Assembly (NCBI GenBank): GCA_001769805.1
Contig: MEPO01000027.1
Span: 75,276 to 139,275, forward strand
Direction: 5' to 3'
Length of the DNA stretch: 64,000 nt
Origin: Bdellovibrionales bacterium GWA1_52_35
GTDB taxonomy: Bacteria > Bdellovibrionota > UBA1018
Part shown: piece after piece, positions 1 to 52,755 of the stretch
Numbering within the stretch: position 1 is the stretch's first letter
Layout of the letters: each line of letters opens with the position of its first letter
Notes under the pieces: model-generated
Databases searched by the model: none
Told to the model about the DNA's origin: nothing
What the model saw: the letters and a program-made list of their open reading frames with translations, nothing else
Program-made: the position numbers and the translations under genes

Positions 1-15
1 CATATAATCTCCCGA

Positions 16-2160
16 TCAGGGTTTCGCGCCAAAAAGACTCCGCGAAATTCGCATACCTTTAGCTTCCATCTCTTCCACGAATTTCGGAATGAATCCGGTA
101 GGAACAAACCGGCCGATGATCTTCCGTTTTTTGTCCAGACTTTCCTGTTTGTACAGAAATATGTCCTGCAGACTGATCACATCCCCCTGCATCCCGACCA
201 CCTCGGTAATGTGCGTGACTTTCCGGGTGCCATCACTCAAACGGCTTTGCTGAATGATCAGGCCGACGGCGGAAGCGATATTTTCGCGAATGGCTTTGGC
301 GGGAATTCCCAGCCCGGCCATCATGACCAGCGTTTCCAGGCGGGCAATGCACTCACGCGGATTATTCGCATGAAGAGTGGTCAGCGATCCGGAATGTCCC
401 GTATTCATCGCCTGCAGCATATCCAGGGCTTCACCCCCGCGGCACTCGCCGACCACGATACGCTCAGGCCGCATCCGGAGACAGTTCTTGATCAGGTCGC
501 GGATACTGACCTCGCCCTCGCCTTCAATATTCTTCGTGCGCGACTCCAGACGAACGACATGGTCCTGTCCGAGCTGTAACTCTGCAGAATCTTCCACTGT
601 AATGATGCGTTCCGTGGCGGGAATGAAATTGGAAAGCACATTGAGCAGCGTCGTCTTGCCGGAACCGGTACCGCCGGAGACGACAATATTCAACTTGGCC
701 TCAACACAGGCCCGAAGGAAGTCTGCAATTTCGTCGGTCATCGAGCCAAAGCCCACCAGATCCTTGACTTCAATCCGCTTCTTGGGAAATTTACGGATGG
801 TAATGGTCGGTCCACGGAGCGCTAGTGGCGGAATAATCACATGGACGCGCGAACCATCGCGCAGACGCGCGTCGACATAAGGAACTTTTTCGTCCACCCG
901 GCGCCCCAAGGGGGTGACAATACGCTCAATCACGTTCATCATCTGATGCTCACTGCTGAAAGTCACCTTCGACATCTGCGGCTTCCCGTTGCGTTCCAGA
1001 TAGATCTGGTCGCGCGCGTTGACCATGATTTCCGTCACCGAATCATCCGCCAGAAAGTCCTCCAGCGGACCAAGACCGAGTGCCTCATCCAGGACTTCCT
1101 TCACCAGCTGGGCTTTGCTTTCACGCGTCGGACACAGAGAAGATGTGTCTTCGCCATTCAGAATATCGAGAACACCTTTCTGGGTTTTTTCCCTCAGAAT
1201 AGCCCGCTGCTTGGAGTCATTGGTATCCGTGGTCATCTTTTTGAGATCCATCTGCTCCACGAGCGCTTTATGAATGCGGAGTTTCATTGAAGTCCACGGA
1301 TCAATGGCACCGTTAATACTGCGGGCATTCTGGCCATTTTCCGTAGTAGTCAGGTTATTCGCCGCTGTCGCTTTTGCCGCCACCCCCGTGGGTTTCTTCA
1401 GCTTCACGAGGCTCTCAAAAAGATTGACCTGCTGAACCCTTCGGACGATTTCGTGATAGCCTTTGGCGGCCGGGGAATTGGGTGCCCCAATACACAAGGG
1501 AATACTCTTGGCCAGGGAGCTGTCACAGGAGGCCGCATCCTCCAGAATAGCCGCAAAAACCTGCCGATTCAGATTCTTCTGGATCATGGGAAGCGTGACC
1601 ACACTGGCGGGCTGATAGCGATTGACGACGAGCTGAACCATTTCCGGGGGGAACAGAAGTTCCTGGATCCTGGCCAGGACCCGCTTTGTCTGGTTGAGGA
1701 CAATCACGTCGGCCATGGTGACGACGAAAATCGCGGTCGCATATTCCAGTGTCTTCAAAGCCCAGGGTTCCGTTCCCGAACCACAATCCACGACGATCAG
1801 GTTGAACACGTTGGTAATCGCTTTCAGAAATCGCCCATACCCGTCCATGTCAAAATCCTGCACCATCACCGAGTCACGAGGCGCACCAATGAAGCTGAAG
1901 CCCGCCGGAGCGTTCACCATGAAGGGACCCAATGTTTTGGGATCGATGGAAGGTACCTGCAGCTTCGAAAGATCCACGATCGTTCGCTGCGGATTCAGGC
2001 CCAGAATGATATTCTGATCACCCAGGGAATTGAAATCGAGATCAACAATGAGCGGCCGCTGATGAAATTCCTGCTGATAGGCGATCGCGAGATTGGCCGC
2101 AAAAATGCTTTTGCCGACCCCGCCCTTTCCGCCTACCACTGCTACAATGTGTCCGGCCAT
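16..2160 (-). CDS. cpaF: Tad pilus secretion ATPase CpaF/TadA with an N-terminal CpaE/TadZ-like ParA/MinD domain (fusion protein)
   Basis: N-terminus has a deviant Walker A 'VVGGKGGVGKS' typical of MinD/ParA/CpaE proteins (~260 aa). C-terminal ~440 aa has the VirB11/CpaF-type Walker A 'VSGGTGSGKTTLLNVL' and downstream ATPase motifs. True ATG start at 2160; the gene sits last in the co-directional Tad array. Confidence 0.85.
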   Translation of the reverse strand: MAGHIVAVVGGKGGVGKSIFAANLAIAYQQEFHQRPLIVDLDFNSLGDQNIILGLNPQRTIVDLSKLQVPSIDPKTLGPFMVNAPAGFSFIGAPRDSVMVQDFDMDGYGRFLKAITNVFNLIVVDCGSGTEPWALKTLEYATAIFVVTMADVIVLNQTKRVLARIQELLFPPEMVQLVVNRYQPASVVTLPMIQKNLNRQVFAAILEDAASCDSSLAKSIPLCIGAPNSPAAKGYHEIVRRVQQVNLFESLVKLKKPTGVAAKATAANNLTTTENGQNARSINGAIDPWTSMKLRIHKALVEQMDLKKMTTDTNDSKQRAILREKTQKGVLDILNGEDTSSLCPTRESKAQLVKEVLDEALGLGPLEDFLADDSVTEIMVNARDQIYLERNGKPQMSKVTFSSEHQMMNVIERIVTPLGRRVDEKVPYVDARLRDGSRVHVIIPPLALRGPTITIRKFPKKRIEVKDLVGFGSMTDEIADFLRACVEAKLNIVVSGGTGSGKTTLLNVLSNFIPATERIITVEDSAELQLGQDHVVRLESRTKNIEGEGEVSIRDLIKNCLRMRPERIVVGECRGGEALDMLQAMNTGHSGSLTTLHANNPRECIARLETLVMMAGLGIPAKAIRENIASAVGLIIQQSRLSDGTRKVTHITEVVGMQGDVISLQDIFLYKQESLDKKRKIIGRFVPTGFIPKFVEEMEAKGMRISRSLFGAKP

Positions 2161-2175
2161 TCCCGATAATCCCCT

Positions 2176-3822
2176 TTATTTCACTTTCACACGGAAATTT
2201 TTGCGAAGATCCTCTGTGCCATCGGAGGCGTTGTCCACGATTTGCGGGGTGACAAAGATGACAAACTGGGACTTCGATCGATTATAACCCTTTGAACGGG
2301 TCAGGTTGAACAATTCTTCGGTATTCTGGGCAAACTGCCCGGTATCCGGAGTTTTATTGAATACCGTCTTCACGCGGGAAGAATTGATGGCCGCTACGGC
2401 GGCGCTTTCGTTGGATTTGACATAAAGCTTCGTGGTGACCTTGTGGGTCGCCACGATCGGCGCGCCCGAGGCGCCCTGGGATACGAGTTCATTTTCGAAC
2501 ATGTCCAGGTCCAGCTGAATGTCCTCGCTCGACCCCAGGATCATCGGTGTCGCAGAAACTTCAAGACCCACTTTTGCCGAGGCGGCAGCTGTTTGCGTAC
2601 CGCTTTGGACCAGATATGGAATTTCTGTGGTTTGATTGAGTTTTGCCTGCTGCCCGCTACGGACAATGATCGTTCCGGTGTTGAGGACCCGGGCATATCC
2701 GGCATCCTGCGCGCTCTTCAATTTCGGGAAGAGACTGGAAATGGTCGCACTGAAAGAAGCACCGGTGCCGCCGACACCACCAGTGCCGGTACCAATGGTA
2801 AATTGATCCGAACCGCTGGTGAAACCAGGGCGCCAAACAAAGCCGAAGGCTTTGCTGTAATCCTTTGAAAGCTCCACAAAATGAATGGTGACACGAACGA
2901 GCCGCTCTGCTTTCTTCGGAGGTGGAGGGCTGACCAGAATGAAATTCTGAATCATGGCTCCGGCTTTTCCCTCAAGCTTTTTTGCATCTCTTTCCACGGT
3001 CGTAAGAGGATCGGCGGGCTTGGGGTCGGGCAGATAAAGTTCCGCGACTCTTGTCGCACGCTGGGCCTTGTCCAGACTGTCTACCGTTCCTTCCAGAAAT
3101 ATTTTCCCGTTCACGACCCGGGTTTTCACATTCTCCGCGAAGACATTGATGTCTTCCTGGATTTTTCTCGCCAAAACCTGCATTGCCAGAGGTGAAAGCA
3201 CCATGAGATTGATCACCCAGGAACCGTAGGCGGAATCACTGATGACCCGAAGCACCCTTGTATAGTCACCTGGCACGAGCACTTCACCTTCAACGATTAC
3301 CTTCATGCCGACCACTCGGATTTCGACACCTTCGACATCCCGAACCAAATTGCGGATTTCTGCGGCAATCCGGTACACATTGGCTGCCGTCACCCGAACG
3401 GTGAAGATCACCTTGATCGTACCCTCCGGATCACGGACGGTCACGGTTGTGGTGCCTTCTTTCGCCGGTCGGAATACGATCTGGTATTTGCCGCCAATAT
3501 TACCCACAATCGGCACCACGACGTCCGGTTTGGCAACCGAGACCTGCAGTTTGGGATCAGGAATTTCGAAATCCAGATCAACCACTTTGTCTTCGACAAT
3601 ACTGAGCACCAGCAGTCGCCGATCGGCGGTTTTTTCTGATTCATCAGAGGTATGCCTGGAACGGCGAAATTTTTTCTTTTTGCGGGCGGACGCCGGTTTT
3701 TCATCGGCGGTTCCCGCTGCTGCACCGGGGCCCGTTGCCGAGGGGGGTGCGTCTTCAGCATAGGATGGCAGCGCTGCCATTACCAGCAGTGAAACCATGC
3801 CTGAAATCAGAAACCGCTTCAT
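2176..3822 (-). CDS. cpaC: Tad pilus outer-membrane secretin (CpaC/RcpA family)
   Basis: Signal peptide 'MKRFLISGMVSLLVMAALPSYA'. Lys/Arg-rich linker, then a secretin-type C-terminal domain (GxxxVPxL-like glycine-rich beta-rich region, '...LNTGTIIVRSGQQAKL...'). Start chosen at the internal ATG at 3822 (the ORF track starts at 3900). Confidence 0.8.
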   Translation of the reverse strand: MKRFLISGMVSLLVMAALPSYAEDAPPSATGPGAAAGTADEKPASARKKKKFRRSRHTSDESEKTADRRLLVLSIVEDKVVDLDFEIPDPKLQVSVAKPDVVVPIVGNIGGKYQIVFRPAKEGTTTVTVRDPEGTIKVIFTVRVTAANVYRIAAEIRNLVRDVEGVEIRVVGMKVIVEGEVLVPGDYTRVLRVISDSAYGSWVINLMVLSPLAMQVLARKIQEDINVFAENVKTRVVNGKIFLEGTVDSLDKAQRATRVAELYLPDPKPADPLTTVERDAKKLEGKAGAMIQNFILVSPPPPKKAERLVRVTIHFVELSKDYSKAFGFVWRPGFTSGSDQFTIGTGTGGVGGTGASFSATISSLFPKLKSAQDAGYARVLNTGTIIVRSGQQAKLNQTTEIPYLVQSGTQTAAASAKVGLEVSATPMILGSSEDIQLDLDMFENELVSQGASGAPIVATHKVTTKLYVKSNESAAVAAINSSRVKTVFNKTPDTGQFAQNTEELFNLTRSKGYNRSKSQFVIFVTPQIVDNASDGTEDLRKNFRVKVK

Positions 3823-3847
3823 TTGGATAAACATACGCTCCGTTTCA

Positions 3848-4690
3848 TCACCTTTTGGCCGGCACTCGTTGAACACGCCCGGCATCCGCACCCAGAACAT
3901 CCATCAGCATCACTCCTGGCAGATTAACCCGCTCGGTATCGTCATTATTCCGCAAAGAGAGCGTGAGCAGGTTTTCACCGCTGGCCGAGAGTAAGGCCAG
4001 CATCTGCACCTGCGCGGGCTCAACCTCAAGAGTGACGGAATTGAAAGTGAAGTCCTCCGCCAAAGGTCGGACCCGGTCCCTGCCTCCAGTGGGATCCGCT
4101 TCAATCACGCGCGGAACGTTATTCGTGACACTCCGACCGACAGCGAGCACCACAATATCCTGCAAAACTGTTTTGACGATCTTGGTATCCTTGCCGCCAC
4201 TGTCAATCACGGCAATCAGGTCGACCCGATCGCCCGGTTTGACGAGTTTGCCGATACTTGTGGTCTCACTGATACCGATCGAAACCGCGCGTCTCCCCGG
4301 CGCGACCTGGGGCGCCAGTCCGGTACGAATTCCTGGATGAGTCATTTTGTTCAATGTGATCTGCTCGCCCTTTTTGATCGGAACCATGGCGACACTTCCG
4401 GCCAGACTCTTGATGACCCGGGTCCCCTCGAGCTCAGATTCCTCCTGCTTTTCGCGTTTTGCGAACGAAACAGCGGAGGGCTCCAAGAACGCCCTGGGGA
4501 TGACCGAAAGCTCGATCATGGTCTCATCAATCGTCTCCGTATCCTTGATGTCGACCTTGGCTTTCAGGACATTGACTTCCGTTCCGAATTTCTTCTTCTG
4601 ACCCTCTTCCAGACTGCCGATGTAACTCTGCACAAAGAGCACTGCGAGAACACCCATAATGAGAGAGAGAGTCACTGCTCTGTTATTCAT
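3848..4690 (-). CDS. cpaB: Flp pilus assembly protein CpaB (RcpC) family
   Basis: N-terminal membrane anchor 'MNNRAVTLSLIMGVLAVLFVQSYIG' followed by a SAF/CpaB-like periplasmic domain. Located between the pseudopilin and secretin genes. Start set at the internal ATG at 4690. Confidence 0.7.
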   Translation of the reverse strand: MNNRAVTLSLIMGVLAVLFVQSYIGSLEEGQKKKFGTEVNVLKAKVDIKDTETIDETMIELSVIPRAFLEPSAVSFAKREKQEESELEGTRVIKSLAGSVAMVPIKKGEQITLNKMTHPGIRTGLAPQVAPGRRAVSIGISETTSIGKLVKPGDRVDLIAVIDSGGKDTKIVKTVLQDIVVLAVGRSVTNNVPRVIEADPTGGRDRVRPLAEDFTFNSVTLEVEPAQVQMLALLSASGENLLTLSLRNNDDTERVNLPGVMLMDVLGADAGRVQRVPAKR

Positions 4691-5228
4691 TGTATCTGCT
4701 CCTGCAAAGTTCAAATTTTGAAGCTTCTCCCAACCCGTAAGGACCGCTGGCCGTATAGACTTTTCTGTCCGGTGATTGAACCGGCAGGATGGGCCTGCCA
4801 TCCGCAAGAACGTTTTGCTGTGTACACATGGATACGGTACTGCGGACGCGGATCTTGGACCGTTCCGGCGGAGTCATCCGATCCTCACTGCCCTGAACGC
4901 CGGGGCGAGTAATCGAATAGTTCATGGACATAGGGGGGCTTCCATCGAGAATTTCAATCGCCGAAACTCCGATGATCATCTGGTTGTATCCGATGTTGGT
5001 GAGATCGTTTGTCCGCAGAGCCATGCCCGGGAAATAGGGACTGTTCATGGCCAAAGCAAGCGCGTGAGAGCGTGAATATTTTTGATTGACGAGCGAAATT
5101 TGAATCACCGTGTTGATCTTGATCATCAGCATGGTGAGGATCACCATCATGGGGAGCATCAGGATCAACTCCAGGACACTCTGTCCACGGGTACTCTGCT
5201 GTTTATGGCTATGCGACTTAACAGCCAT
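4683..5228 (-). CDS. TadE/TadF-like pseudopilin (Flp pilus assembly)
   Basis: N-terminal 'QQSTRGQSVLELILMLPMMVIL' matches the TadE-like motif (RGQxxVEFxL plus a hydrophobic helix). Third of three tandem paralogs. Start uncertain (5228 vs 5264). Confidence 0.6.
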   Translation of the reverse strand: MAVKSHSHKQQSTRGQSVLELILMLPMMVILTMLMIKINTVIQISLVNQKYSRSHALALAMNSPYFPGMALRTNDLTNIGYNQMIIGVSAIEILDGSPPMSMNYSITRPGVQGSEDRMTPPERSKIRVRSTVSMCTQQNVLADGRPILPVQSPDRKVYTASGPYGLGEASKFELCRSRYNE

Positions 5229-5757
5229 TATCGATGATCCCCTTTTTTGCTCCCATTTCCTCACTGCATTCCTGATAAGATGGTTCTCTCCCCAACCAGC
5301 TCTCTGAAGTTAAAGTCAGCTGATTCGCTGCATCACCTTTGGGCGTCAGGCCCGCAAACGGCAGCAGAAAAAGCTGGCTCTTGAATCTGTATCGGACTCC
5401 TTGCATCCAAACTGTATCGAAATTCGCCGGATCATAACGCGGATGGTTAATCTGGAAGCCTTTGATATCACTTCCCTCAAAGCCCTTTGCCACCCAGGGA
5501 TACCGGTCTGTGCCATTCCCTTTGTTCTTCACTGTCGCCAGGATGATTTCCTGGGCATTGGCGATCTGCTCGTCGGGTGTACTTCCTGCAGAGAGATAGG
5601 CCCGGGCCGACATGAAAGTGGCGTATTGCACATAATTACTGAACCCGAAGATCAGTCCGAGCCGCAGAAAAAACATCGAGAAACTCATGAGTAAAATCAA
5701 GACGAGCGCGAACTCCACCGTGGATTGTCCTGCCTGTCTTTCTTTTTTCAGACTCAT
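5218..5757 (-). CDS. TadE/TadF-like pseudopilin
   Basis: N-terminal 'MSLKKERQAGQSTVEFALVLILLMSF' is TadE-like. Start uncertain (5757 vs 5772). Confidence 0.6.
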   Translation of the reverse strand: MSLKKERQAGQSTVEFALVLILLMSFSMFFLRLGLIFGFSNYVQYATFMSARAYLSAGSTPDEQIANAQEIILATVKNKGNGTDRYPWVAKGFEGSDIKGFQINHPRYDPANFDTVWMQGVRYRFKSQLFLLPFAGLTPKGDAANQLTLTSESWLGREPSYQECSEEMGAKKGIIDNGC

Positions 5758-5768
5758 TTCACACCTTC

Positions 5769-6044
5769 TCACCGGGGATTGATAAACAGCCGAAAGCTAT
5801 TCATTCCGCCATCTTCCGCTCGCGGATGATTTTCGGAAGTACCCTCATCATTACTGCGACCTTTGGGATGCCCGACCTGATAGGCATTTTTGTAATCCTC
5901 CTGGATCGGTTTCAGCATTTTTTCGCCGAGCTGAAACGTCGTCAAGGAACGGACGAACGCGATGTAGGCAGAAAGCAGGATGATCAGCAGAAGGATGTAT
6001 TCGAAAGTAGCCTGACCGGCCTGTCTTCGTTTTTTCAAAACCAC
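5769..6044 (-). CDS. small TadE/pseudopilin-like protein
   Basis: N-terminal 'VLKKRRQAGQATFEYILLLIILLSAYIAF' has the same RQAGQxT(F/V)E(Y/F) motif as the two downstream paralogs. The start is probably a GTG/TTG near 6044 rather than the GTG at 6059 used by the ORF track. Confidence 0.5.
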   Translation of the reverse strand: MVLKKRRQAGQATFEYILLLIILLSAYIAFVRSLTTFQLGEKMLKPIQEDYKNAYQVGHPKGRSNDEGTSENHPRAEDGGMNSFRLFINPR

Positions 6045-6589
6045 GGAAACACCCCCCACTTCTGCAGAGGATGGTCAAACAGGACCCAGACTGCCGCAAT
6101 CGCGATCGGAATGCCGAAAGGCATCGTCAATTTGCGATCGACCACGGGAGCCTGGATTTCCAGTTCACGGATGAAAACCGAGAGAAGAAAACGGTATAGG
6201 CGGCGTGAAAAATCAGGCAATCGGCCCTTTGCGAGCAGAAGAAGCGCTGCCAGAACGCCTCCCAGCAGAATGGAAAGAATCGCTGTTTCAAAAACATATT
6301 TCGGATCCGTCCAGGCTCCGAGCGCCATCAGAAGTTTCACGTCACCGCCACCCATCACCCGAAGCGCAAAGAGCCAGCCGAAAAGCACGAGCCCGGCAAC
6401 TGCCCCCAGTAACCCCGTTCCCAGGCCACTGAAGCCAGAGACATAAAAGGAAGCGACCAATCCGAGGCAAAATACCGGCAGCGTGAACCAGTTGAAAATT
6501 CGGCCCCAGACCAGATCAGTAAACAGCGCCACCAGCGAAATCAGAGGAATCGCATAATAAATGACAAGCTCAGTTGTCCCGCCAGACAT
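6035..6589 (-). CDS. cpaA: A24-family prepilin peptidase (CpaA/TadV)
   Basis: Polytopic membrane protein, 184 aa, with acidic residues in cytoplasmic loops ('...TDLVWGRIFNW...', '...GGGDVKLLMALG...', a GGDVKL-type motif of A24 peptidases). Sits between the pilin and pseudopilin genes. Confidence 0.75.
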   Translation of the reverse strand: MSGGTTELVIYYAIPLISLVALFTDLVWGRIFNWFTLPVFCLGLVASFYVSGFSGLGTGLLGAVAGLVLFGWLFALRVMGGGDVKLLMALGAWTDPKYVFETAILSILLGGVLAALLLLAKGRLPDFSRRLYRFLLSVFIRELEIQAPVVDRKLTMPFGIPIAIAAVWVLFDHPLQKWGVFPWF

Positions 6590-6797
6590 TGACTGGAATC
6601 CTCCCGGTCTTGAGATCCTTCTCGAGTTGTGAACCCAGCTTCAGCATTCCACGGTCTGTCAATCGCATGATGATCCGAACCACGGCCATCACCGCGACAA
6701 TCGTTACGGTCAGAATGAGGATATACTCGACCGTCGTCTGACCTCTTTCGTCGTCAAACAAGGACCGAGAAAATTTTGGAATGGATGCTGTACCCAT
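6570..6797 (-). CDS. flp: Flp family type IVb/IVc pilin (Flp-2)
   Basis: '...DDERG|QTTVEYILILTVTIVAVMAVV' has the Flp G/xxxxEY processing motif followed by a hydrophobic helix. Start probably at the internal ATG at 6797 (the ORF track gives 6827). Confidence 0.7.
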   Translation of the reverse strand: MGTASIPKFSRSLFDDERGQTTVEYILILTVTIVAVMAVVRIIMRLTDRGMLKLGSQLEKDLKTGRIPVNVWRDN

Positions 6798-6862
6798 CGT
6801 TCTACCCGCAGTGGGCCCCAATCCCATTCTAGCAAATCATGAAAAAGTGTATGGAGAGCGGA

Positions 6863-7045
6863 TCAATTGATATCCTGCATGGCTTCGCCCATCTTGCCAT
6901 CCAGAACATTCAACATACCCGAAAGCTTACCGCCAAATTCCTTCTTGAATCGCAGCGCGACGAGAACCACCACGGAGAGAATGAGAATATACTCCGTCGT
7001 CGACTGTCCGCGATCGTCCCCCCACAAAGCTTTTAAAAAATTCAT
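6863..7045 (-). CDS. flp: Flp family pilin (Flp-1)
   Basis: 60 aa. 'MNFLKALWGDDRG|QSTTEYILILSVVVLVAL' has the Flp motif plus a hydrophobic helix. Good RBS (GAGGGAG) and an AT-rich promoter region upstream. Confidence 0.8.
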   Translation of the reverse strand: MNFLKALWGDDRGQSTTEYILILSVVVLVALRFKKEFGGKLSGMLNVLDGKMGEAMQDIN

Positions 7046-7211
7046 ACCCTAGCTCCCTCTCTCTCTACTTTCTGATCGGCTAAGAGCCCAAGAAGATGAG
7101 AGAAATTAAAGAATCCTCAAACCCCACAGGAATTCTACCTTAATTTTCTAACACTAAACAAAAACAGTCAAGAATAGAGTTTCTCATAAATATTTCTTTA
7201 ATTCTAAGCAC
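7046..7211 (-). promoter_or_regulatory. AT-rich intergenic region upstream of the flp pilin genes, containing the flp promoter/5'UTR
   Basis: This is the only sizeable non-coding gap (166 bp) in the 15 kb minus-strand array. On the transcribed strand it carries TTGACT-N17-GAAAAT and a purine-rich leader 'GTAGAGAGAGAGGGAG' before the ATG. Confidence 0.4.
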
Positions 7212-7961
7212 TTAAAAAAACATTACCATGCCGGTTGCGTTCTCCTCGAACTGGCACTCGCTCAGAACGGCAGTAATCTCGCGAGCAGGTTCCTGAACAC
7301 CGGAAATCTGCCTGGAAATCTGTATGGAACCGATCGTCTGTACTGCTTTTGATCCCAAACCATCGGTTTGCAGCAGTATCCAATCCCCTTTTTTAATACG
7401 ATACTCCATGATCTCCGGCTCAAGGTCCTCCGCCATTCCCAGCGCAGCCAACGGGATATTTAAGGCTGGACTCGCTTGCAGTGAAAGCGGATCGATCATT
7501 CGGGCATAAGTCCGAGGGAGGACGAGTTCAACTGGCTGTCCGTTCCGAAAGAGCCAGGCAGAACAGGATCCGACATTCGCCAGCGCCAGAAGATCGCCAT
7601 CGAGAAAAGCAGCGAGCACTGATGCGCCGCCGCGTTCATGAGTTCCTTTGTCGTGATTCATTTCCAGAATTTTGAGATTGGCGTGAATGAGTGCATTGAA
7701 CAGAACGTTTCCTGCCAATGAGAAATAGGACCGCAGAACGAAAGGCAGGGTGGCTTCCCGATCTCCGCCTTCTTTTTTCAGAAATCCCCGGACCGTCTCG
7801 CAGGCAAGCTTGGAGGCGCCCACCCCGGCGACCGGTCCCCCAAAACCATCCGCAATAACAAAAATTCCATTATCCTTCACCTCAAGCGCGTGGTCCTCCT
7901 GCAACTCGCGCCGGCCCCGATCCGAAAACATTGCGATTGCGTGCACAGGAAGTCTTCTCAT
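7212..7961 (-). CDS. PP2C-family Ser/Thr protein phosphatase
   Basis: Motifs 'RELQEDHAL', 'FVIADGFGG' and 'ILLQTDGLG' match PPM/PP2C metal-binding motifs. 249 aa. 4-bp overlap with the upstream FHA gene. Confidence 0.8.
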   Translation of the reverse strand: MRRLPVHAIAMFSDRGRRELQEDHALEVKDNGIFVIADGFGGPVAGVGASKLACETVRGFLKKEGGDREATLPFVLRSYFSLAGNVLFNALIHANLKILEMNHDKGTHERGGASVLAAFLDGDLLALANVGSCSAWLFRNGQPVELVLPRTYARMIDPLSLQASPALNIPLAALGMAEDLEPEIMEYRIKKGDWILLQTDGLGSKAVQTIGSIQISRQISGVQEPAREITAVLSECQFEENATGMVMFF

Positions 7962-10285
7962 TCCAGGTCACCTTTTTTCAGATAACGCGACAGCTTGCGC
8001 TTGGAGCGCTCATAGTAAATATCATCGACCGGTGCGACACTCAGGCATTCTTTGAATTTGTTCTTGGCAGTATCAAAATCGCTATAGCTTTCAGCAAGAA
8101 CGGCTTCGGTATAGATCACCTTCGCGCGATCGTGGAGCACGGCCCGCAGACGCTTCATTCCCAGATAGCCGGCCGGATGTTCCGGATCGACAAGCGTCGC
8201 TTTCCGGTAAAGCTGATATGCCCGCGCCAGATCACCCGATTCCTCCAGTTGTTTCGCTTCCTGCAGGAAGGGCTCCCGTACCGCCGCAATCGCGGCTTGC
8301 GCCCGCCTCATCAGAGCTGCGCGCGCTGGGTGCAGCTTCGGATCAGAGGCCCCCATTTCAGCCAGCTCTTTGAGAATATTGATGGCCTGCCGGTACTTGC
8401 CGGCCTTGAAACGGGCTTTCGCTTCCGCATAGACGCCCCAGGCATGCTTGTTGATTTGTGTGCGGGTCTGTTTTTGTATTTCCTTGATACGCTCGGACTC
8501 TTCCCATTCGCCGATCTCTTTGCGCCAGGCTCCCACCTCTGCGTTGTCAGGATCAATTTCCAAAATTCCCGGGAAGAGTTCGCTGGCTTTCCGATACTGC
8601 TTCTTCTCCATCAAGTCGCGGACCTCATCGGCCAGCTCGGCAACCCGGGCCTTGATCCGCGCTTCCTCTTCCTTCCTCTTCTTCTCTTCTTCCATGGCTT
8701 CACTGCGCCGCTTTCCCTGCTCTGCATAGTGCTTCAGCTCGATAGAATTATCGTAGTCCGAAACCAGTGAAAACAGCTGACTCAATTCGTAGAGAGCTTT
8801 ATCGAAATCCCCATTGGTGTAGTATTGGAAAGCCAAGGCGTGTTTTGCTTTTACAAATTTCTGTTCCTCGGGTTTCAACCGTTCAAAAGTTCTCAAGCTG
8901 CTTTTATCGAGAACCCCTGGACTCGGCTTGGACTGCGGTTTTCGCTGCAATTTGGGCGCATCCCCTTCTTCCATTCCCCACCAGAGCGCCAGCAGGCCGA
9001 GGGCTCCGACCAGGAATTTTTGTCGGGCAGGAAGTTTTGCGAAGAGACTCTTGCCCTTGTTTCCACCCATTCCGGCAATCCCGGTGACGCCGGTCATTCC
9101 CGGAATATGAGGACTCGGAGCGGAGGCGGAATTCCCGCCCGCTCCCACGCCCGGCAGAATATTGATCCGCGATTCCTTGGCATCCCAGGCATTGGACTCC
9201 CCACCGGAAGGAACAGGACTTGACTGGATCAGACTTGAAATTTCCGGAACAGGGAAAGAATAGCTTTTGTTCTCACTTTCAACGGGGAGCGCTGATTGGA
9301 CCTGCCGTGTATAATCAGCACTTTTGATAAGAAAATTGAAAATCACATCACCAATCTGGATCTGATCTTCGCCCGTGAGTTCCTGCTCACTAATTTTCAC
9401 ACCATTGACGAAAGTACCATTGGCTGAAGCAAGATCCTTGATCACATAACTCAAGCCAGCTTTGCGTATGATCGCGTTCTTGCGGGAAGCTCGTTTATCA
9501 TTCAATACGATGTCACAGGTTTTCGCACGGCCGATCGAAATTTCATCGCCACTGAAAACGTATTCTTCGACGTTCGCACTGCCCGGCTTGAAAATCAGGC
9601 GGACTGCAATTTTGCCGATCGGCGCGACTTTGGTCGCGGCATCACTTTCGGCAATTTCCATGAATTTAGTGGCCAGCGGCATAGGATCATCCAGCGCGGC
9701 TGGCAGCGCGGCGGGTTTTTCAGGATCGGACATGATAGGATGAACCGGTGCAGGAGTAGGGGCCGGCTCTGACTCTTCCCCCTGCGGCATTTCAATCGGA
9801 CTTTCGTTAATCGGTAAAACAGTTGCCGGCGCGGCATCACTCAAATCAGACAGGGGTTCTTCATATTGATCCGGCCCAGCCTTGGGTACGGACGGTACCA
9901 GAGCCGGCTTGATCGGAATGACAGGCACTTCCTGAGCGATCGGTGCAGCAGGAGCTGCGCGCAAGGGATTTGCCTCTGCTGGTGGAATCGAAACCTTCAC
10001 CAGGTAAGGACCCAGGGCTATGACATCGCCCTCGACCAGCATGCCGCTCGCGCAAAGCTTTCCGTTGATGCTCAAAGGAGCATATTCACTTTTCTTTTCG
10101 ACCTGTATGCCTTCAGGAGTCTGGGTAAATACGACATGACGTCGCGAAATAGCCCGATCTTCAAGCCGAATCACGCAGTCTTCGCCTCGGCCTACGACAA
10201 GCGGCCTGCTGTTGGGCGGGAGCTGGCAGGATTTGATCACCTCGCCATTTTTCAGAAAGGTGAGAAGTGGAGCAGCACCCATCAA
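7958..10285 (-). CDS. membrane protein with two N-terminal FHA domains and a C-terminal TPR-repeat domain
   Basis: FHA-1 '...LVVGRGEDCVIRLEDRAISRRHVVF...'. FHA-2 '...ISIGRAKTCDIVLNDKRASRKNAIIRKAGLSYVIKDLASANGTFVNG'. Pro-rich linkers, one TM helix 'FLVGALGLLALWWGM', then ~330 aa of TPR-like helical repeats. Confidence 0.75.
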   Translation of the reverse strand: MMGAAPLLTFLKNGEVIKSCQLPPNSRPLVVGRGEDCVIRLEDRAISRRHVVFTQTPEGIQVEKKSEYAPLSINGKLCASGMLVEGDVIALGPYLVKVSIPPAEANPLRAAPAAPIAQEVPVIPIKPALVPSVPKAGPDQYEEPLSDLSDAAPATVLPINESPIEMPQGEESEPAPTPAPVHPIMSDPEKPAALPAALDDPMPLATKFMEIAESDAATKVAPIGKIAVRLIFKPGSANVEEYVFSGDEISIGRAKTCDIVLNDKRASRKNAIIRKAGLSYVIKDLASANGTFVNGVKISEQELTGEDQIQIGDVIFNFLIKSADYTRQVQSALPVESENKSYSFPVPEISSLIQSSPVPSGGESNAWDAKESRINILPGVGAGGNSASAPSPHIPGMTGVTGIAGMGGNKGKSLFAKLPARQKFLVGALGLLALWWGMEEGDAPKLQRKPQSKPSPGVLDKSSLRTFERLKPEEQKFVKAKHALAFQYYTNGDFDKALYELSQLFSLVSDYDNSIELKHYAEQGKRRSEAMEEEKKRKEEEARIKARVAELADEVRDLMEKKQYRKASELFPGILEIDPDNAEVGAWRKEIGEWEESERIKEIQKQTRTQINKHAWGVYAEAKARFKAGKYRQAINILKELAEMGASDPKLHPARAALMRRAQAAIAAVREPFLQEAKQLEESGDLARAYQLYRKATLVDPEHPAGYLGMKRLRAVLHDRAKVIYTEAVLAESYSDFDTAKNKFKECLSVAPVDDIYYERSKRKLSRYLKKGDLE

Positions 10286-11283
10286 CGCACCCCTCCCTTC
10301 ATTTCTTTTCTGACGGAATCAAGCTGTTCTTTAGCAACGATATAGGACTCATCACTCTGTGCCCGGTGCAAGAGGCGCAGCACCGACTCAAAATGCCCGC
10401 GGGCATCTTTCAGCTTGCCGGCACTTTGTGACTTCTTGCCCACTTCCAGGTGAAACTTCACCTCTTGCGTGATTTCGCGATTACAGTTTTCAAGATAGAG
10501 TGTCGCAAGCCGGTGCCCCGGTGCGATCTGAAGAACGGTTTCGAATTGAACCCGCGCCCGCAAGTAATTTTTTTCCCGGAACTCCCGGAACCCGCTCCGG
10601 TAGAACATTTCAGCCGTTCTATTGACCGCGGCTTCAGCTCCTTTTGGAAGATACGAAGCAAGGTCTCTTTGGGCCTCAAGCTTCTCCGGCTTTTTCTGAC
10701 GAGGAGCCTGTTCATCCTTGCCCAGGAAAAGCACCAGCATCAAAACCGCTCCCGCTCCAAGATAAAGCTTGGTGCGGTTTCCGCCACTTCCGGCCGCACC
10801 CCTGACCCCAGCACCGCCCCCCAGAAGGGATCCGCTCGAATCAATGCCGCGCGCGCGTTTTCGCTGGGCCTCGAAAGCTGCTTGTTCTGCTTCGATCTGC
10901 TTTATATCCCGAGGAGGTGCGATCAGCATCATTGTGCCCGCTTCAGCGGCCACGAACTCGAAAGTCGTTTCTCCGATTTTGAAAGTATCCTTCAGCTTCA
11001 GGCGCCCGCCTCTGGTGGGCGCGCCGTTCAACAGCATTCCATTTGCACTGGCAAGATCCCGGATATTCCAAGTATCACCCGTGCCAACAATTTCGGCATG
11101 AATCCGCGATGCTTTCAGATCGGAAATTATGATGTCGTTTTCATCACCGCGACCAATCGTGGCACGACTTCGCAGAAGAACATAGACGCACCCATAATCA
11201 GGACCCTGGATCACCTTGAGCCGGGCCAGCTCACCTTGCTGTTTCGGAAGGGTGCTTTGTTTGAAACGGATTGCTGTGCCCAT
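10282..11283 (-). CDS. FHA-domain membrane protein with C-terminal TPR-like domain
   Basis: FHA '...ATIGRGDENDIIISDLKASRIHAEIVGTGDTWNIRDLASANGMLLNG'. TM helix 'LYLGAGAVLMLVLFLG'. C-terminal TPR-like region. 4-bp overlaps on both sides. Confidence 0.75.
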   Translation of the reverse strand: MGTAIRFKQSTLPKQQGELARLKVIQGPDYGCVYVLLRSRATIGRGDENDIIISDLKASRIHAEIVGTGDTWNIRDLASANGMLLNGAPTRGGRLKLKDTFKIGETTFEFVAAEAGTMMLIAPPRDIKQIEAEQAAFEAQRKRARGIDSSGSLLGGGAGVRGAAGSGGNRTKLYLGAGAVLMLVLFLGKDEQAPRQKKPEKLEAQRDLASYLPKGAEAAVNRTAEMFYRSGFREFREKNYLRARVQFETVLQIAPGHRLATLYLENCNREITQEVKFHLEVGKKSQSAGKLKDARGHFESVLRLLHRAQSDESYIVAKEQLDSVRKEMKGGVR

Positions 11284-12941
11284 CAGCTCTCCGATCTCAC
11301 GAATGTGATCACGAAACCCTTGATCTGGCCTCCCGGCATGGCGAATGCCGCAGCGTTGACTCTGTACGCGATGCCTTCAAATTCATAATCCTCGGAAATC
11401 GTTTCTCCAGAGCTTGCCGTCACCCGGTCAATCAGATCCCCGGCAAAGGAATCAAAGGCTTGATCCCGCGCCACGGCCGAAATGGTCTGTCCCACGGCCG
11501 TGTCGCCCCGAATTCCGCTGATTTCCTGAAAGATCGTGTTCAGATAGACAATCCGGCGTTCATGATCGCAGAGAACCAGGCCGAATTTCGACAACTCTCC
11601 CATCATTCGAACGGGGCCGGCAAAAATCTCCGTTGAAATGGCACCTTCCACAGACTGACTGTCCATCGTGGAGGCGCGAGGAATACGCTGCAGAGCTGAA
11701 TCGATCAGCTGCCAGAGTTGATTCGTGTCTTCCACTTTGTACTCATGCGTGACTTGGGCGATGTCGCCCTTCAAACCTTTTTCGAGATCTTCAGTCAGTA
11801 TCCGATAAGGTCGCAAGGTGAGCCGCCGGACAATTGCGAAGATGAGGATCGCGAATAGGCCTGTGAATATGAAAGTCTTTGAATAGATGACGCTGATTTC
11901 TCCGGTATCGAGTGTCACGAGTCCGGTATCGATGGACACGATCGACATTGCCGCCACCACATTCCGTCCTGCTCGCGAGCTGAAGACTTTGACCGGTTCG
12001 ATCGCGGTGATCGTTGATTCATCGAGTTCGGCCGCATATCCGGTCTCCCGACCCCTGTCGAACTGTTCTTTCATTTTCCGGGCAAAACGCGACTCGACAC
12101 CGGAAGTCAAAATATTTCCCGCTTTCGAAGGCGGCGCCAGTACGCGGTTATCGAGATCCACCAGCAGCGCCAGCTTCACTCCCTCAGCATCTTCCGCAAG
12201 TCCGATTTCAGTTTTAGAACTCGCACCAGCAGCCACGAATTGGACGTTCTGTTCCGCGATCTGCCGGGCCATGAAACGAGCTCGGCTGCTTGCTTCCTTT
12301 ACGACCGTCATCCGGCCGGACTCAATCAGCGGATAGACCGAAATAACCAGATTTCCCAGAGTCAGCACCGCGAGCAGTCCAAAGATCATCAGATGCCACT
12401 CGTGCTTCAGGTTCAGGGAATAGAATATCGGCATGATCTGCCGTTCAAAATACCAGAGCAATTTTTCCTTGAGGTCCTTGGGGGGCGTATTTGCATTCAT
12501 GGCATCAATCGCCATTTGCGATGAGCCACCTTGGGATCCGATACCGAATTCCGAAACTCCGGCAGGCAGTGATTTCGAAGATCCGACCGAAGCCAGAGCG
12601 ATCACGTTTCCTAAGCCTGCGACGTCTGGCGCTCTTCTCGGTGTTTTCGCTTTGGGATCGCTGATTTCGAAGACGTATTCTCCGACGCTGATCCGGTCGC
12701 CGAGATTCACTGTTTTTGTTTTCGCTAGGATTCCATTGATGAACGTACCGTTTGAACTGCCCTGGTCCTGGACAATGATTTCGTCCTTGCTGACCGAAAG
12801 CACACAGTGGTGCTTCGAAACCCGCGCAGATGGCAATACGACGACATTGTCGCCATGGCGACCTATCGAGGTACTTCCGTTTTCCTGCAGCACGTAACTG
12901 CTACCCGAATTGGGGCCAGCCACGATGGTCAGCTTATACAT
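11283..12941 (-). CDS. FHA-domain membrane protein with periplasmic loop and C-terminal PAS-like domain
   Basis: FHA 'TSIGRHGDNVVVLPSARVSKHHCVLSVSKDEIIVQDQGSSNGTFING'. Two TM helices ('WHLMIFGLLAVLTLGNLVISVYPLI', 'IFTGLFAILIFAIVRRL') flank a ~150-aa loop. C-terminal PAS-like segment '...GLVLCDHERRIVYLNTIFQEISGI...'. Confidence 0.7.
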   Translation of the reverse strand: MYKLTIVAGPNSGSSYVLQENGSTSIGRHGDNVVVLPSARVSKHHCVLSVSKDEIIVQDQGSSNGTFINGILAKTKTVNLGDRISVGEYVFEISDPKAKTPRRAPDVAGLGNVIALASVGSSKSLPAGVSEFGIGSQGGSSQMAIDAMNANTPPKDLKEKLLWYFERQIMPIFYSLNLKHEWHLMIFGLLAVLTLGNLVISVYPLIESGRMTVVKEASSRARFMARQIAEQNVQFVAAGASSKTEIGLAEDAEGVKLALLVDLDNRVLAPPSKAGNILTSGVESRFARKMKEQFDRGRETGYAAELDESTITAIEPVKVFSSRAGRNVVAAMSIVSIDTGLVTLDTGEISVIYSKTFIFTGLFAILIFAIVRRLTLRPYRILTEDLEKGLKGDIAQVTHEYKVEDTNQLWQLIDSALQRIPRASTMDSQSVEGAISTEIFAGPVRMMGELSKFGLVLCDHERRIVYLNTIFQEISGIRGDTAVGQTISAVARDQAFDSFAGDLIDRVTASSGETISEDYEFEGIAYRVNAAAFAMPGGQIKGFVITFVRSES

Positions 12942-13318
12942 AATTCGTCCCCTGCGCGTAGGGTGCAGCGTTCAATCGTTCCGTCCGGAAGCTCCAAGGT
13001 ATCGTCGGCTTGCCGATCAAAGAGCGGAAGAATCCGCCATGGCCTGACTCCGGGATGTACCGAGCTGATCTTCCAGGACGTTTTTCCCTGCGCAGTGACC
13101 TCCTTTCGAATAAATACGACATCAATCCGCATCGTCATGAACCAGGTGTGAATGTTGTTGCACTCCGGGAACAACATTCCTGCACCGTTTTCGAGGGAGG
13201 ATTTTCCGATCAGTCCACGAAGACGATCGAAAAAATGCTCCGCCTCATAACACTTATCGGCAATAAGGGCTTGATTTGTTAGGGACTGCACCTTTTTCAA
13301 TTGAGCATGGATTTTCAT
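12929..13318 (-). CDS. DUF192 (COG1430) domain protein
   Basis: 129 aa. 'RLRGLIGKSSLENGAGMLFPECNNIHTWFMTMRIDVVFI' matches the DUF192 core (RGLMxR...GMLF...M...iDv.Fi). Overlaps neighbouring genes by a few bp, so it is in the same operon. Confidence 0.6.
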   Translation of the reverse strand: MKIHAQLKKVQSLTNQALIADKCYEAEHFFDRLRGLIGKSSLENGAGMLFPECNNIHTWFMTMRIDVVFIRKEVTAQGKTSWKISSVHPGVRPWRILPLFDRQADDTLELPDGTIERCTLRAGDELCIS

Positions 13319-14031
13319 TCGGGTTTTCCACCCTGGGGGATAAAGGCCAGCGGCTGATTTTCTTGAATTTTCCTGATCAACTCCGAACGACCCGGCTCTT
13401 CGAGTGTCAATATTTCAACGCCCATTCCTTTCGGCAAAATATCCGCTCTGGGGCGAACCCATCGTACAACGCCGGTTCCAGAGAGCCGAATTGACGGATC
13501 ACTCAAATGGAGTTCAAGCCGGACTACTTCGTCCACGGTTGCTTCAACTATTCCAGGAACGAATATGCCGCCTCGCCCGACACATCGCCAGTCGATAGCC
13601 GTTTTTTGAAAAGCAAGCGTCTGCGGCTCCATCTGCTCAACTGCAGACCATCGCTCCGCCTGTGGCAACAGCAGGTTCGCGATCGTACTGATCACTTTTC
13701 GCATACTGAAGGGTTTCGGGAAAATGGCATCCGCACCCATATCGTAAAGTGACTCGGTGGTTACATCGGCAAAGCCGGAGATCAGCGAGAAAACCGATTC
13801 AGAGGTGCGCTCCCGTACTTTCCGGAGCAGTTCCGTACCATCCCCTCCCGACATGCGGACGTCTGAAATAATGACCTCTGGCGAAGACTTTAAGAATAGT
13901 TCAAAACCTTCGGTGCCATTCGCAGCTGCGAGGCTCTTGCTGCCACGTGCAGACAGGGCTTCGCAGATCAGTTCACGAATCAATGGCTCATCATCGACCA
14001 CAAGAATGGTCTTGCCCTCAAGAGGATTCAT
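13315..14031 (-). CDS. response regulator with N-terminal receiver and C-terminal PilZ-like domain
   Basis: REC 'KTILVVDDEPLIREL...EVIISDVRMSGGDGTELL...FPKPF'. C-terminal beta-rich domain ending 'GVVRWVRPRADILPKGMGVEIL' resembles PilZ. The canonical RxxxR/DxSxxG c-di-GMP motifs are not obvious. Confidence 0.65.
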   Translation of the reverse strand: MNPLEGKTILVVDDEPLIRELICEALSARGSKSLAAANGTEGFELFLKSSPEVIISDVRMSGGDGTELLRKVRERTSESVFSLISGFADVTTESLYDMGADAIFPKPFSMRKVISTIANLLLPQAERWSAVEQMEPQTLAFQKTAIDWRCVGRGGIFVPGIVEATVDEVVRLELHLSDPSIRLSGTGVVRWVRPRADILPKGMGVEILTLEEPGRSELIRKIQENQPLAFIPQGGKPE

Positions 14032-14819
14032 CAGGCCGCCTCCCTGACGTGAGTGTAAGCCAAAGGCATCCGGAGCAGAAAACAGGTCAATTCATCGCTC
14101 TTCAGCAGTAATTCTCCTTGATGGGCTTCCATGATTTGTTTTGAAATCGAAAGGCCCAGTCCTGTGCCCTGGGCCTTTGTGGTAAAGTGCGGCTCCATGA
14201 CCCTGCTGCGAATCGCCTCGGGAATTGCCGGACCACTGTTTGCAATCTGGAGCTCCAGACTGTTCTCATTTCGCGCTATTTCAATCGATATCCATTTTTT
14301 TCCGGAACGGCTGGTTTCATTTCCGATGGCTTCGATCGCCTCGACTGCGTTGAGCAGAAGATTGAGAAGCACTTGCGTGATCTGCGCGGGCCTGCAATCA
14401 ATCTTGAATTCCTGTTCCAGCGGTTCAATTCTGAGTTCGATCTGAAGTTGCAGCAATTTCGAACGCACCAGGCTGATTGTCATGCCTAGAATTTCGTCCA
14501 GACTGGCGCGCACAAAGGACTCTTCCTGAGTGTTGCGACTGAGCGCCTTAACACCCAGGACCACTTTTTCGATGTGGCGGGCAGTCAACTCGATCTGCTC
14601 GAGCGACTGCTCCAGCTGTTGCGGGTCCAGCTCACCCGTCTTCAAAAGTCCACGGAGATGAGTCGTTCTGGCTAAGATCACCGTCAGCGGACTGCAGACC
14701 TCATGCACAAGTCCGGCAGAGAGTTCTCCCAAAGCGCGCATTTTTTCGAAATGCTCCTGGTTGTTTTCCGCTTCGGAATACTGACTGGCCCAATTCCGGA
14801 TGTTTTTCCAGATACTCAT
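14031..14819 (-). CDS. cytoplasmic sensor histidine kinase (HisKA + HATPase_c, no obvious sensor/TM)
   Basis: H-box 'LSAGLVHEVCSPLTVI'. N-box 'LLNLLLNAVEAI'. G-boxes 'TGLGLSISKQIMEAHQGEL'. 1-bp stop/start overlap with the REC-PilZ gene. Confidence 0.8.
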   Translation of the reverse strand: MSIWKNIRNWASQYSEAENNQEHFEKMRALGELSAGLVHEVCSPLTVILARTTHLRGLLKTGELDPQQLEQSLEQIELTARHIEKVVLGVKALSRNTQEESFVRASLDEILGMTISLVRSKLLQLQIELRIEPLEQEFKIDCRPAQITQVLLNLLLNAVEAIEAIGNETSRSGKKWISIEIARNENSLELQIANSGPAIPEAIRSRVMEPHFTTKAQGTGLGLSISKQIMEAHQGELLLKSDELTCFLLRMPLAYTHVREAA

Positions 14820-15841: not shown

Positions 15842-15862
15842 TCAACATGTACCATAAGAGTT

Positions 15863-52711: not shown

Positions 52712-52755
52712 GTCTTTCACCATCGTTTTGTGTATGTTAGGATCCCAGACGAACC

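Follow-up and report, generated by a model that had tools for sequence, protein, structure and literature searches.

A Tad/Flp pilus gene cluster joined to an FHA/PP2C accessory block in an uncultured member of the Bdellovibrionota

How a Tad-type pilus machine comes to stand beside several FHA-domain proteins, a phosphatase and a two-component pair, and whether these genes form one system, is the question raised by a stretch of 64,000 nucleotides from Bdellovibrionales bacterium GWA1_52_35 (contig MEPO01000027.1, positions 75,276 to 139,275), referred to here as the window. Sixteen consecutive open reading frames (ORFs) occupy the minus strand between positions 16 and 14819, as judged from the ORF list and its translations and as a first-pass annotation of the window had stated. 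Pfam and NCBIfam searches recovered in this region every domain type named by that annotation (FHA, TPR, PAS, PP2C, DUF192, PilZ, T2SSE, CpaE, Flp and TadE; Table 1). The locus is likely to encode a Tad/Flp (Kil-like) pilus apparatus of the kind found in Bdellovibrio and like organisms (BALOs) together with a dedicated accessory block, the two being carried by juxtaposed transcription units and coupled by an FHA/PP2C phospho-switch. The machine and each class of accessory gene are already known from model predators, and FHA signaling has been proposed for the Kil system. What is new here is the union of the FHA/PP2C/DUF192 and TAD/hit operons in a single contiguous cluster, which is conserved throughout the phylum.

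The comparison of related loci carries this finding. A profile built from 33 homologs of the FHA-FHA-TPR protein was scanned against one genome per species and gave 80 loci, about 78 of them from metagenome-assembled genomes (MAGs) of Bdellovibrionota; all 21 proteins were compared with the 80 loci by tblastn. Essentially all loci with enough flanking sequence keep the same order on one strand from DUF192 to RHS: DUF192, FHA-PAS, FHA-TPR, FHA-FHA-TPR, PP2C, flp, (prepilin peptidase), minor pilins, CpaB, secretin, fusion ATPase, TadB and RHS. About 45 of these loci are complete, and the order is found in about 45-60 species-level Bdellovibrionota genomes. The distant member L087 (loci are numbered where they must be told apart) shows it by an independent gene call and precomputed Pfam matches. 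Directly upstream of the DUF192 gene, tadC is present in 44 of the 50 loci with upstream sequence; it encodes another T2SSF protein, about 305 aa long and 25% identical to TadB (E 4e-12). Since tadC holds this position in so many loci, while the histidine kinase gene of the window is found in few and its receiver-PilZ gene in none, the conserved unit starts at tadC/DUF192. The DUF192 gene, the three FHA genes and the PP2C gene are thus no novelty of this locus: the block is conserved throughout the phylum and is listed, uncharacterised, in a transposon sequencing (Tn-seq) supplement for B. bacteriovorus.

In an exhaustive profile search, the FHA-FHA-TPR family comprised over 150 clusters (50% identity) with full-length matches, with homologs labelled as Bdellovibrionota, Bdellovibrionales or Oligoflexia, and DUF192 orthologs, which lack a signal peptide, were found in 63 loci. 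The best 120 of 7,995 homologs of the fusion ATPase (E <= 1e-30) are full-length, 75-91% identical and of the same CbiA plus T2SSE composition, and every source name given among those 120 belongs to Bdellovibrionota/Oligoflexia. An identical copy of the window ATPase is present on metagenome contigs from Rifle groundwater, as well as in GCA_001769475.1. One sub-clade (L050, L053, L055-L066, L070 and L087) has no A24 prepilin peptidase and a single small flp-like gene, with the run from tadC to RHS still contiguous. This mirrors the reported distribution of TadV, which is absent from true Bdellovibrio genomes and present in Bacteriovorax and Halobacteriovorax (Avidan et al., 2017).

Both halves of the cluster have been studied in B. 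bacteriovorus. The proteins Bd0110-0119 have been recognized as the counterparts of Kil, with TadC encoded apart at Bd0470 (Seef et al., 2021). The TAD operon, defined as bd0109-0119, is FliA-dependent, and flp mutants attach to prey and cannot prey on it (Avidan et al., 2017). Bd0109 is a periplasmic YD-repeat protein (PF05593) of about 65 kDa with an AFA signal-peptidase site; its gene is co-transcribed with bd0110/0111 and bd0108, and the protein binds the small secreted protein Bd0108 (Capeness et al., 2013). In turn, tadC (Bd0470) heads an operon that includes the FHA protein Bd0474, whose mutant attaches and neither kills nor rounds prey. The supplement of the same work describes Bd0471 as a conserved protein (Phyre: 'hypothetical signal peptide protein'), Bd0472-0474 as FHA proteins and Bd0475 as a probable serine phosphatase; all of Bd0470-0475 show very low predation fitness by Tn-seq, and Phyre places Bd0472 in type III secretion or protein transport (Duncan et al., 2019). 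Bd0471 is very probably a DUF192 member, because the DUF192 profile matches the structure 3PJY, whose molecule name is the very phrase given by Phyre.

Seen against this background, the window is Bd0470-0475 and Bd0119-0108 placed end to end, minus tadC and plus the histidine kinase and receiver-PilZ genes. The pilus half shares with Bd0119-0108 the order flp, minor pilins, CpaB, BON-secretin, P-loop/CpaF ATPase, TadB, YD/RHS protein (about 62-65 kDa) and small secreted protein; the accessory half shares with Bd0470-0475 the order (TadC), DUF192 fold, three FHA proteins and Ser phosphatase, which lacks TadC in the window and is full in the 44 of 50 relatives and in L087. As in B. bacteriovorus, a sigma28-type element may precede flp, although in the window only its -10 part is recognizable. 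The locus differs from that of B. bacteriovorus in that the halves are contiguous here and about 350 genes apart there, in that TadV is present, as in Bacteriovorax and Halobacteriovorax, and in that tadC is replaced by the two-component pair. A homology search with the TadC of L066 listed no named B. bacteriovorus protein among its matches. The first-pass proposal of a predation-type (Kil-like/BALO) Tad machine with an attached FHA/PP2C set is supported.

The sequence to the left of the window, obtained by extending the contig (L001; the window plus about 10 kb, 74 kb in total), completes the comparison. TadB and TadC had been expected immediately left of position 1. TadB is indeed there (289 aa, T2SSF 5e-18), and the gene next to it (L001 12158-16123 for the whole group) encodes a 561-aa RHS/YD protein instead of TadC. 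This protein has a signal peptide (...FAFA|NVS), RHS_repeat (6e-22) and DUF6531 (2e-12) matches. It was considered as a delivered Rhs/YD polymorphic toxin and rejected: it is too short, it consists of DUF6531 and RHS repeats only, without a toxin domain (NCBIfam RHS_core covers 130 of 1261 positions), and its size and features match those of Bd0109. Next come an 86-aa secreted low-complexity protein, at the position that bd0108, the hit gene, has in B. bacteriovorus, a 315-aa signal-peptide protein and, convergently, acyl-CoA carboxylase genes. The small protein is rich in Ala, Pro, Ser and Lys, the larger one ends in ...YLSYDF, and both close the cluster (L001:14876-16123). They have no Pfam match and no homolog in the other 80 loci, and no sequence similarity was detected for the protein in the Bd0108 position. 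Because of its aromatic C-terminus, the 315-aa protein is suspected to be an outer-membrane beta-barrel. In four loci of a distant sub-clade (L056, L058, L062 and L064), a low-complexity signal-peptide protein of 71-82 aa begins about 40-75 bp after the RHS stop codon (e.g., L062:22875-23090); it has a CCKTC...GGC motif and a disordered-looking tail, and looks like a second, unrelated family in the Bd0108 position.

Other known systems resemble the cluster in part. In M. xanthus, the Kil machine assembles on prey contact, its authors already proposed FHA-based signaling, and its clusters are enriched in FHA proteins: MXAN_3104, the N-terminus of KilF, the FHA plus TPR proteins KilD and MXAN_4648, and the PrgH-like FHA protein MXAN_4649 (Seef et al., 2021). 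Like the window, Kil (MXAN_3102-3108 and MXAN_4648-4661) has a Tad core with a single ATPase and no TadD, TadG or RcpB, apparently also a BON-secretin that lacks an N0 domain (in the window, Pfam finds BON and Secretin only, with no N0, Secretin_N or pil_N), and many FHA proteins, including FHA plus TPR and a PrgH-like one next to the platform genes; the window has three FHA proteins with four FHA domains. Unlike Kil, in which KilF has an FHA domain at its N-terminus, the window ATPase and its 120 closest listed homologs have a ParA/MinD-like domain and no FHA. Kil is also split in two clusters, for which no PP2C, DUF192 or RHS gene is listed, the accessory proteins having been compared by description only. 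With the canonical Tad/Cpa systems (Aggregatibacter tad and Caulobacter cpa) the locus has in common the Flp prepilin, A24 peptidase, TadE-like pilins, CpaB, secretin, CpaF ATPase and T2SSF platform; it differs in the fusion of CpaE to CpaF, the single T2SSF gene in the locus and the addition of the FHA/PP2C/DUF192 block and the YD protein. No ORF of the locus has a Pfam match to the TadD pilotin, TadG or RcpB. In a 118-aa ATPase block (block 1 of a published supermatrix), the window sequence is 55% identical to that of B. stolpii, 54% to H. marinus, 48% to B. bacteriovorus and 44% to M. xanthus, and 31% to those of Caulobacter and Agrobacterium.

Two further parallels concern signaling. The PpkA-PppA-Fha1 module of the P. 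aeruginosa type VI secretion system, an analogy drawn by the Kil authors, likewise places an FHA scaffold and a PP2C eraser on a contact-triggered envelope machine; here, however, there is no kinase in the cluster, the machine is different and the FHA proteins are membrane-anchored with periplasmic TPR or sensor-like domains. In the FHA-GGDEF protein DgcB of B. bacteriovorus, a phosphothreonine (pThr) peptide acts through the FHA domain as the gate, and the corresponding kinase, which was not identified, was presumed to sense prey encounter and to act on multiple substrates (Meek et al., 2019). The FHA fold of DgcB is similar to that of the window proteins (Foldseek matches to 6HBZ, 6HC0 and 6HC1), but the output of DgcB is cyclic di-GMP (c-di-GMP) synthesis, whereas the window FHA proteins have no enzymatic output domain.

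The accessory proteins have well conserved architectures. The FHA-PAS protein contains two transmembrane (TM) segments (residues 184-202 and 352-370) with a loop of about 150 residues between them; the PAS domain, weak in the window protein, is found in 26 of 36 orthologs. In every ortholog of the two FHA-TPR families, a single hydrophobic segment occupies a conserved position (all 40 checked for FHA-TPR). The AlphaFold2 model of the FHA-FHA-TPR protein, with a predicted local distance difference test (pLDDT) score of 75.9, shows two confident FHA domains (residues 1-100 and 220-330), disordered linkers, a TM helix at 419-438 and a helical repeat at 471-771; a single-sequence AlphaFold model of the FHA-PAS protein (pLDDT 35.9) was discarded. 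The TM predictions and the AlphaFold model place the FHA domains in the cytoplasm and the TPR and loop domains in the periplasm. The pThr pocket residues (G-R, S-x-x-H and N-G) are invariant in 36/36 FHA-PAS proteins and in both FHA domains of 33/33 FHA-FHA-TPR proteins, and the closest solved FHA domains are pThr readers: GarA, OdhI, FhaA, EmbR, the archaellum regulator ArnA and B. bacteriovorus DgcB. All the FHA domains also match Pfam Yop-YscD_cpl. Foldseek with the FHA-FHA-TPR model returned generic FHA and TPR matches only, none of them pilotin-like. In the phosphatase, E22, D23, D38, G39 and D193 are invariant in 31-32 of 32 orthologs, and the window protein itself has D200 and E240-N241. 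The DUF192 family profile matches PDB entries 3PJY and 3M7A, while a PDB search with the single sequence gave no match.

In all Bdellovibrionota loci the accessory module is kinase-less, which is a second new observation. By a motif scan for Hanks-type kinases (HRDxKxxN...DFG) over 1.47 Mb of window and loci, none of them encodes such a kinase within 10 kb of the module, the only ORF with the motif belonging to one unrelated Chloroflexi locus; the genes with Pfam annotation, which account for most of the rest of the window, include no Pkinase match.

These features suggest the following working scheme. The unit which starts at flp1 (flp1, flp2, TadV, three minor pilins, CpaB, BON-secretin, fusion ATPase and TadB, with the YD/RHS and small secreted proteins beyond the window) would build the pilus. 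The other unit (DUF192, FHA-TM-loop-TM-PAS, FHA-TM-TPR, FHA-FHA-TM-TPR and PP2C) corresponds to Bd0471-Bd0475, with tadC as the first gene in most relatives. Its three inner-membrane FHA proteins may form a trans-envelope scaffold or sensor, whose cytoplasmic FHA domains would dock partners phosphorylated on Thr by a kinase encoded elsewhere; docking would recruit or license the platform and the ATPase, and the PP2C phosphatase would reset the switch. The interdomain linker of the ATPase (residues 255-295) is variable and Ala/Gly-rich and is flanked, among the 120 homologs, by LKKP(T/S)G (S/T in 97%) and DPWT (T in 100%). When Thr docking sites were sought in this linker, T258 and T290 proved to be conserved but without the FHA-type +3 signature, so that a docking role is an idea only. 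The flanking motifs might, speculatively, be phospho-sites.

The gap between the PP2C and flp genes is kept in all loci, and the view of it as a promoter region has held well. In the window, it contains a sigma70-like site, TTGACT (7171-7166) and GAAAAT (7148-7143) with 17 nt between them, and a sigma28-like -10 element, GCCGATCA (7080-7073). When the gaps of 46 relatives were compared with shuffled sequences, TTGAC[TA] was found in 31 (shuffle mean 4.6), a full sigma70-like site in 15 (0.5), CCGA[TA]A in 22 (2.6) and a full sigma28-like site of the form TCA(A/G)GTTT-N11-CCGATA in 11 (0.1). This enrichment test was used in place of a strict sigma28 regular expression, which matched few loci. 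A generic promoter and terminator scan over 16.5 kb stayed at background level, so that it cannot alone define the transcription units. In several gaps (e.g., L049, L034, L054, L013, L029 and L033) an inverted repeat, TTGAC-N(3-11)-GTCAA, lies over the sigma70-like -35 element; a strict regular expression finds it in 3 of the 46 loci (shuffled mean 0.08), and looser palindromes are visible by eye. The repeat may be the operator for a regulator. Because of the conserved promoters in the gap and the lack of linkage between the halves in B. bacteriovorus, the genes probably form two transcription units, perhaps with read-through from one to the other, and the single 'super-operon' of the first-pass annotation is doubtful.

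The two genes upstream of DUF192 have a different history. Homologs of the histidine kinase (HK) were found only in L005 and L006, the two closest relatives, with 37% identity and directly adjoining DUF192; none of the 80 related loci gives a tblastn match to the response regulator, which joins a receiver (REC) to a PilZ-like domain. In the window, the two genes stand where tadC is normally found. On these grounds, the pair appears to be a recent and labile replacement of tadC in a small sub-lineage, which is a third new element, and it can hardly be called hard-wired in the system, as had been proposed. In L016 (Bdellovibrionales bacterium GWB1_55_8), a 103-aa ORF with a HisKA-type H-box only (L016:7499-7810) lies between the ROK gene and DUF192 and looks like the decayed remnant of a histidine kinase of the window type.

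The receiver of the regulator has the usual acidic pocket. Its PilZ-like domain is marginal in Pfam (6.5e-5): RxxxR is present (R-CVG-R), the position of [D/N]xSxxG reads RLSGTG, and the PDB entries that score best, again marginally (E about 0.06), are 3DSG, 3CNR and 4F48, PilZ structures from Xanthomonas named 'type IV fimbriae assembly protein'. The Xanthomonas PilZ is not known to bind c-di-GMP and acts on the pilus ATPase PilB. For these reasons (a marginal match, an incomplete motif and such nearest solved relatives), the label of c-di-GMP regulatory module given by the first-pass annotation is not established. The PilZ (XAC1133/XC1028) of the PilZ-FimX-PilB module of Xanthomonas is the closest to the PilZ-like domain at that marginal score, and differs in that the window domain is fused to a receiver. 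Signals from the HK through the REC-PilZ protein could provide a lineage-specific extra input, possibly on the fusion ATPase as Xanthomonas PilZ acts on PilB. Second-messenger genes occur elsewhere in the window (50950-56472): a stand-alone receiver (50950-51597, minus strand), a PAS-GGDEF protein (51734-52711, plus), two small PilZ genes (about 53854-54339 and 54425-54823, minus) and a GYF_2 protein (54820-56472, minus).

Several points weigh against the reading of the locus as a complete predatory pilus with a phospho-switch. No tadC ortholog is present in the 74 kb of window and extension, which leaves the machine incomplete if no other part of the genome carries tadC. The predatory lifestyle of the uncultured host is assumed from phylogeny. 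Orthology to the model predators is argued from the order and size of the genes, their domain content and published annotation, the sequence comparison being that of the 118-aa ATPase block only. In the phosphatase family D200 is conserved in only 22 of 32 orthologs (D/E240 in 24), literature searches gave no functional lead for DUF192, and the sigma28-like site of the window has its -10 element only. With no kinase near the module in about 80 loci, phospho-dependence is deduced from the conserved residues alone, and the role of the HK and REC-PilZ proteins is one that we purely infer.

The main rival to a phospho-switch is a structural one, which we regard as unlikely: the FHA proteins would form a phosphorylation-independent ring or alignment complex, like YscD/PrgH of type III secretion systems, taking the place of TadD, TadG and RcpB, and the PP2C protein would have another substrate or a minor role. 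The Yop-YscD_cpl matches of all the FHA domains agree with it, as do the arrangement of FHA, TM segment and periplasmic domain found in YscD, the missing cis kinase, the absence of the three canonical Tad proteins and the Phyre assignment of Bd0472. Such a ring would not call for the invariant pThr pockets, nor for nearest solved relatives that read pThr or a PP2C gene that is always co-linear. Somewhat less probable still is an ordinary adhesion or biofilm Tad pilus, possibly in a non-predatory host and similar to the predation machinery by shared ancestry. Tad pili serve adhesion in most bacteria, and the lifestyle of the host, an uncultured groundwater MAG, is not established; yet B. bacteriovorus needs this set of genes to prey, Bd0109-like YD and Bd0108-like secreted proteins are retained, the ATPase groups with BALO sequences by its 118-aa block identities, and canonical TadD, TadG and RcpB are lacking.

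The version of the first-pass annotation, in which the 14.8 kb are one operon with the HK and the REC-PilZ protein as its built-in c-di-GMP master regulator, seems improbable to us. The overlaps of 1 and 4 bp that tie HK, REC-PilZ and DUF192 together speak for it, and the PAS-GGDEF and two PilZ genes of the window show that c-di-GMP signaling exists in this genome. These arguments are met by the restriction of the HK to two loci plus a truncated remnant, the absence of the REC-PilZ gene from all 80, the incomplete PilZ motif, the conserved promoters between PP2C and flp, and the unlinked halves in B. bacteriovorus. Finally, that the FHA/PP2C/DUF192 genes are an unrelated signaling operon and a chance neighbor of the tad genes hardly merits belief: the promoter-bearing gap and the separate location in B. 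bacteriovorus would fit it, but the block stands between tadC and flp in most relatives, in strict order and in about 45-60 species, a synteny that effectively refutes it, and in B. bacteriovorus itself the block forms an operon with tadC and shares its predation phenotype. A BALO Tad apparatus with its own accessory block thus stays our favored explanation. We further consider, as a possible although doubtful extension of it, that the block (tadC)-DUF192-three FHA-PP2C is an ancestral, phylum-wide, kinase-less pThr switch built into the Tad/Kil machine, which would link the prey-encounter kinase that also gates DgcB to pilus assembly, and which would have been rewired here by the exchange of tadC for an HK and a receiver-PilZ adaptor acting on the fusion ATPase.

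The features of the run are collected in Table 1. With plausible starts, the junctions from HK to PP2C are -1, -4, -13, -1, -1 and -4 bp, flp1 and flp2 are 35 bp apart, and those from flp2 to TadB are -20, -10, +11, -11, -8, +13, +15 and +12 bp. The description of these junctions as overlaps of 1-4 bp or spacers of 25 bp or less, apart from the 166-bp gap, is therefore right about the gap and inexact for the flp1-flp2 spacer and for several overlaps of 8-20 bp. Similarly, the three 'TadE-like pseudopilins' are all prepilin-like, each having a hydrophobic helix after a G/Q-x-T-x-E-[YFL] motif, and only one of them passes Pfam TadE. The database version of the FHA-FHA-TPR protein begins one residue after the start of the 775-aa ORF (7958-10285). 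A ROK-family kinase gene on the minus strand (14879-15841) lies 59 bp upstream of the HK gene, so that the co-directional run continues beyond 14819. The plus-strand FtsK ORF overlaps ROK as listed (15266-18466); the gene call puts its start at about 15863, which leaves the two divergent genes only about 20 bp apart. Rfam riboswitches and small RNAs were absent from the window and L001 at the gathering threshold, and from the PP2C-flp gap at a permissive threshold, and no tRNAs were found.

Table 1. Features of the minus-strand run at the left end of the window (window positions)
Position	Strand	Feature	Evidence or remark
14031..14819	-	Soluble HK, lineage-specific	HATPase_c 1.6e-19, HisKA 9.5e-5; no TM, no sensor domain
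13315..14031	-	Response regulator, REC plus C-terminal PilZ-like domain, found in this species-level lineage only	Response_reg 6e-18, PilZ 6.5e-5
12929..13318	-	Small cytoplasmic DUF192 protein; first gene of conserved accessory block	DUF192 2.8e-13
11283..12941	-	FHA-TM-loop (about 150 aa, predicted periplasmic)-TM-PAS membrane protein	FHA 2e-14, PAS weak
10282..11283	-	FHA-single TM-TPR (predicted periplasmic) protein	FHA 9e-13, Yop-YscD_cpl 4e-16
7958..10282	-	FHA-FHA-single TM-TPR/coiled-coil (predicted periplasmic) protein	Two FHA plus TPR (Pfam)
7212..7961	-	PP2C-type Ser/Thr phosphatase; last gene of accessory block	PP2C_2 1.8e-6, NCBIfam Stp1/IreP 2.6e-20
7046..7211	-	166-bp intergenic gap with promoter elements	Between PP2C and flp1
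6863..7045	-	Flp-type prepilin 1, 60 aa, G|QSTTEY	Flp1_like 2e-4 plus motif
6570..6827	-	Flp-type prepilin 2, up to 85 aa, G|QTTVEY	Class_IIIsignal 1e-4 plus motif
6035..6589	-	Prepilin peptidase, TadV/CpaA type	Peptidase_A24 7e-18, GGGDVK motif
5769..6044	-	Minor pilin, 91 aa, G|QATFEY	Gene call in L001; Class III signal 0.026; N-terminal TM
5218..5757	-	TadE-like minor pilin, 179 aa	TadE 5e-5
4683..5228	-	Minor pilin-like protein, 181 aa, G|QSVLEL	Gene call, N-terminal TM, no Pfam match
3848..4690	-	CpaB/RcpC	RcpC 1.5e-22, TIGR03177 2.8e-40
2176..3834	-	Secretin with BON domain	Secretin 2.8e-16, BON 1.8e-5; 552-aa start used in L003 (ORF reaches 3900)
16..2160	-	CpaE-like (ParA/MinD)-CpaF (TadA) fusion ATPase	CbiA 3e-12, T2SSE 1.2e-64, TIGR03819 5.5e-98
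1..3	-	TadB start codon (ATG); 289-aa T2SSF gene runs off the window	

Work on B. bacteriovorus has treated the TAD/hit and Bd0470-0475 operons separately, and the FHA/phosphatase operon appears in the Tn-seq supplement only. That dozens of uncultured relatives carry the two operons fused and in a fixed order argues for one functional unit, and since a cis-encoded kinase is consistently lacking, a shared prey-encounter kinase acting in trans is indicated. The presence of the HK and REC-PilZ pair in the place of tadC shows evolutionary plasticity on the input side of the system. For the question of how prey contact triggers a predatory pilus, the cluster offers defined targets: the FHA pockets, the PP2C active site, the DUF192 protein and the periplasmic TPR or sensor-like domains.

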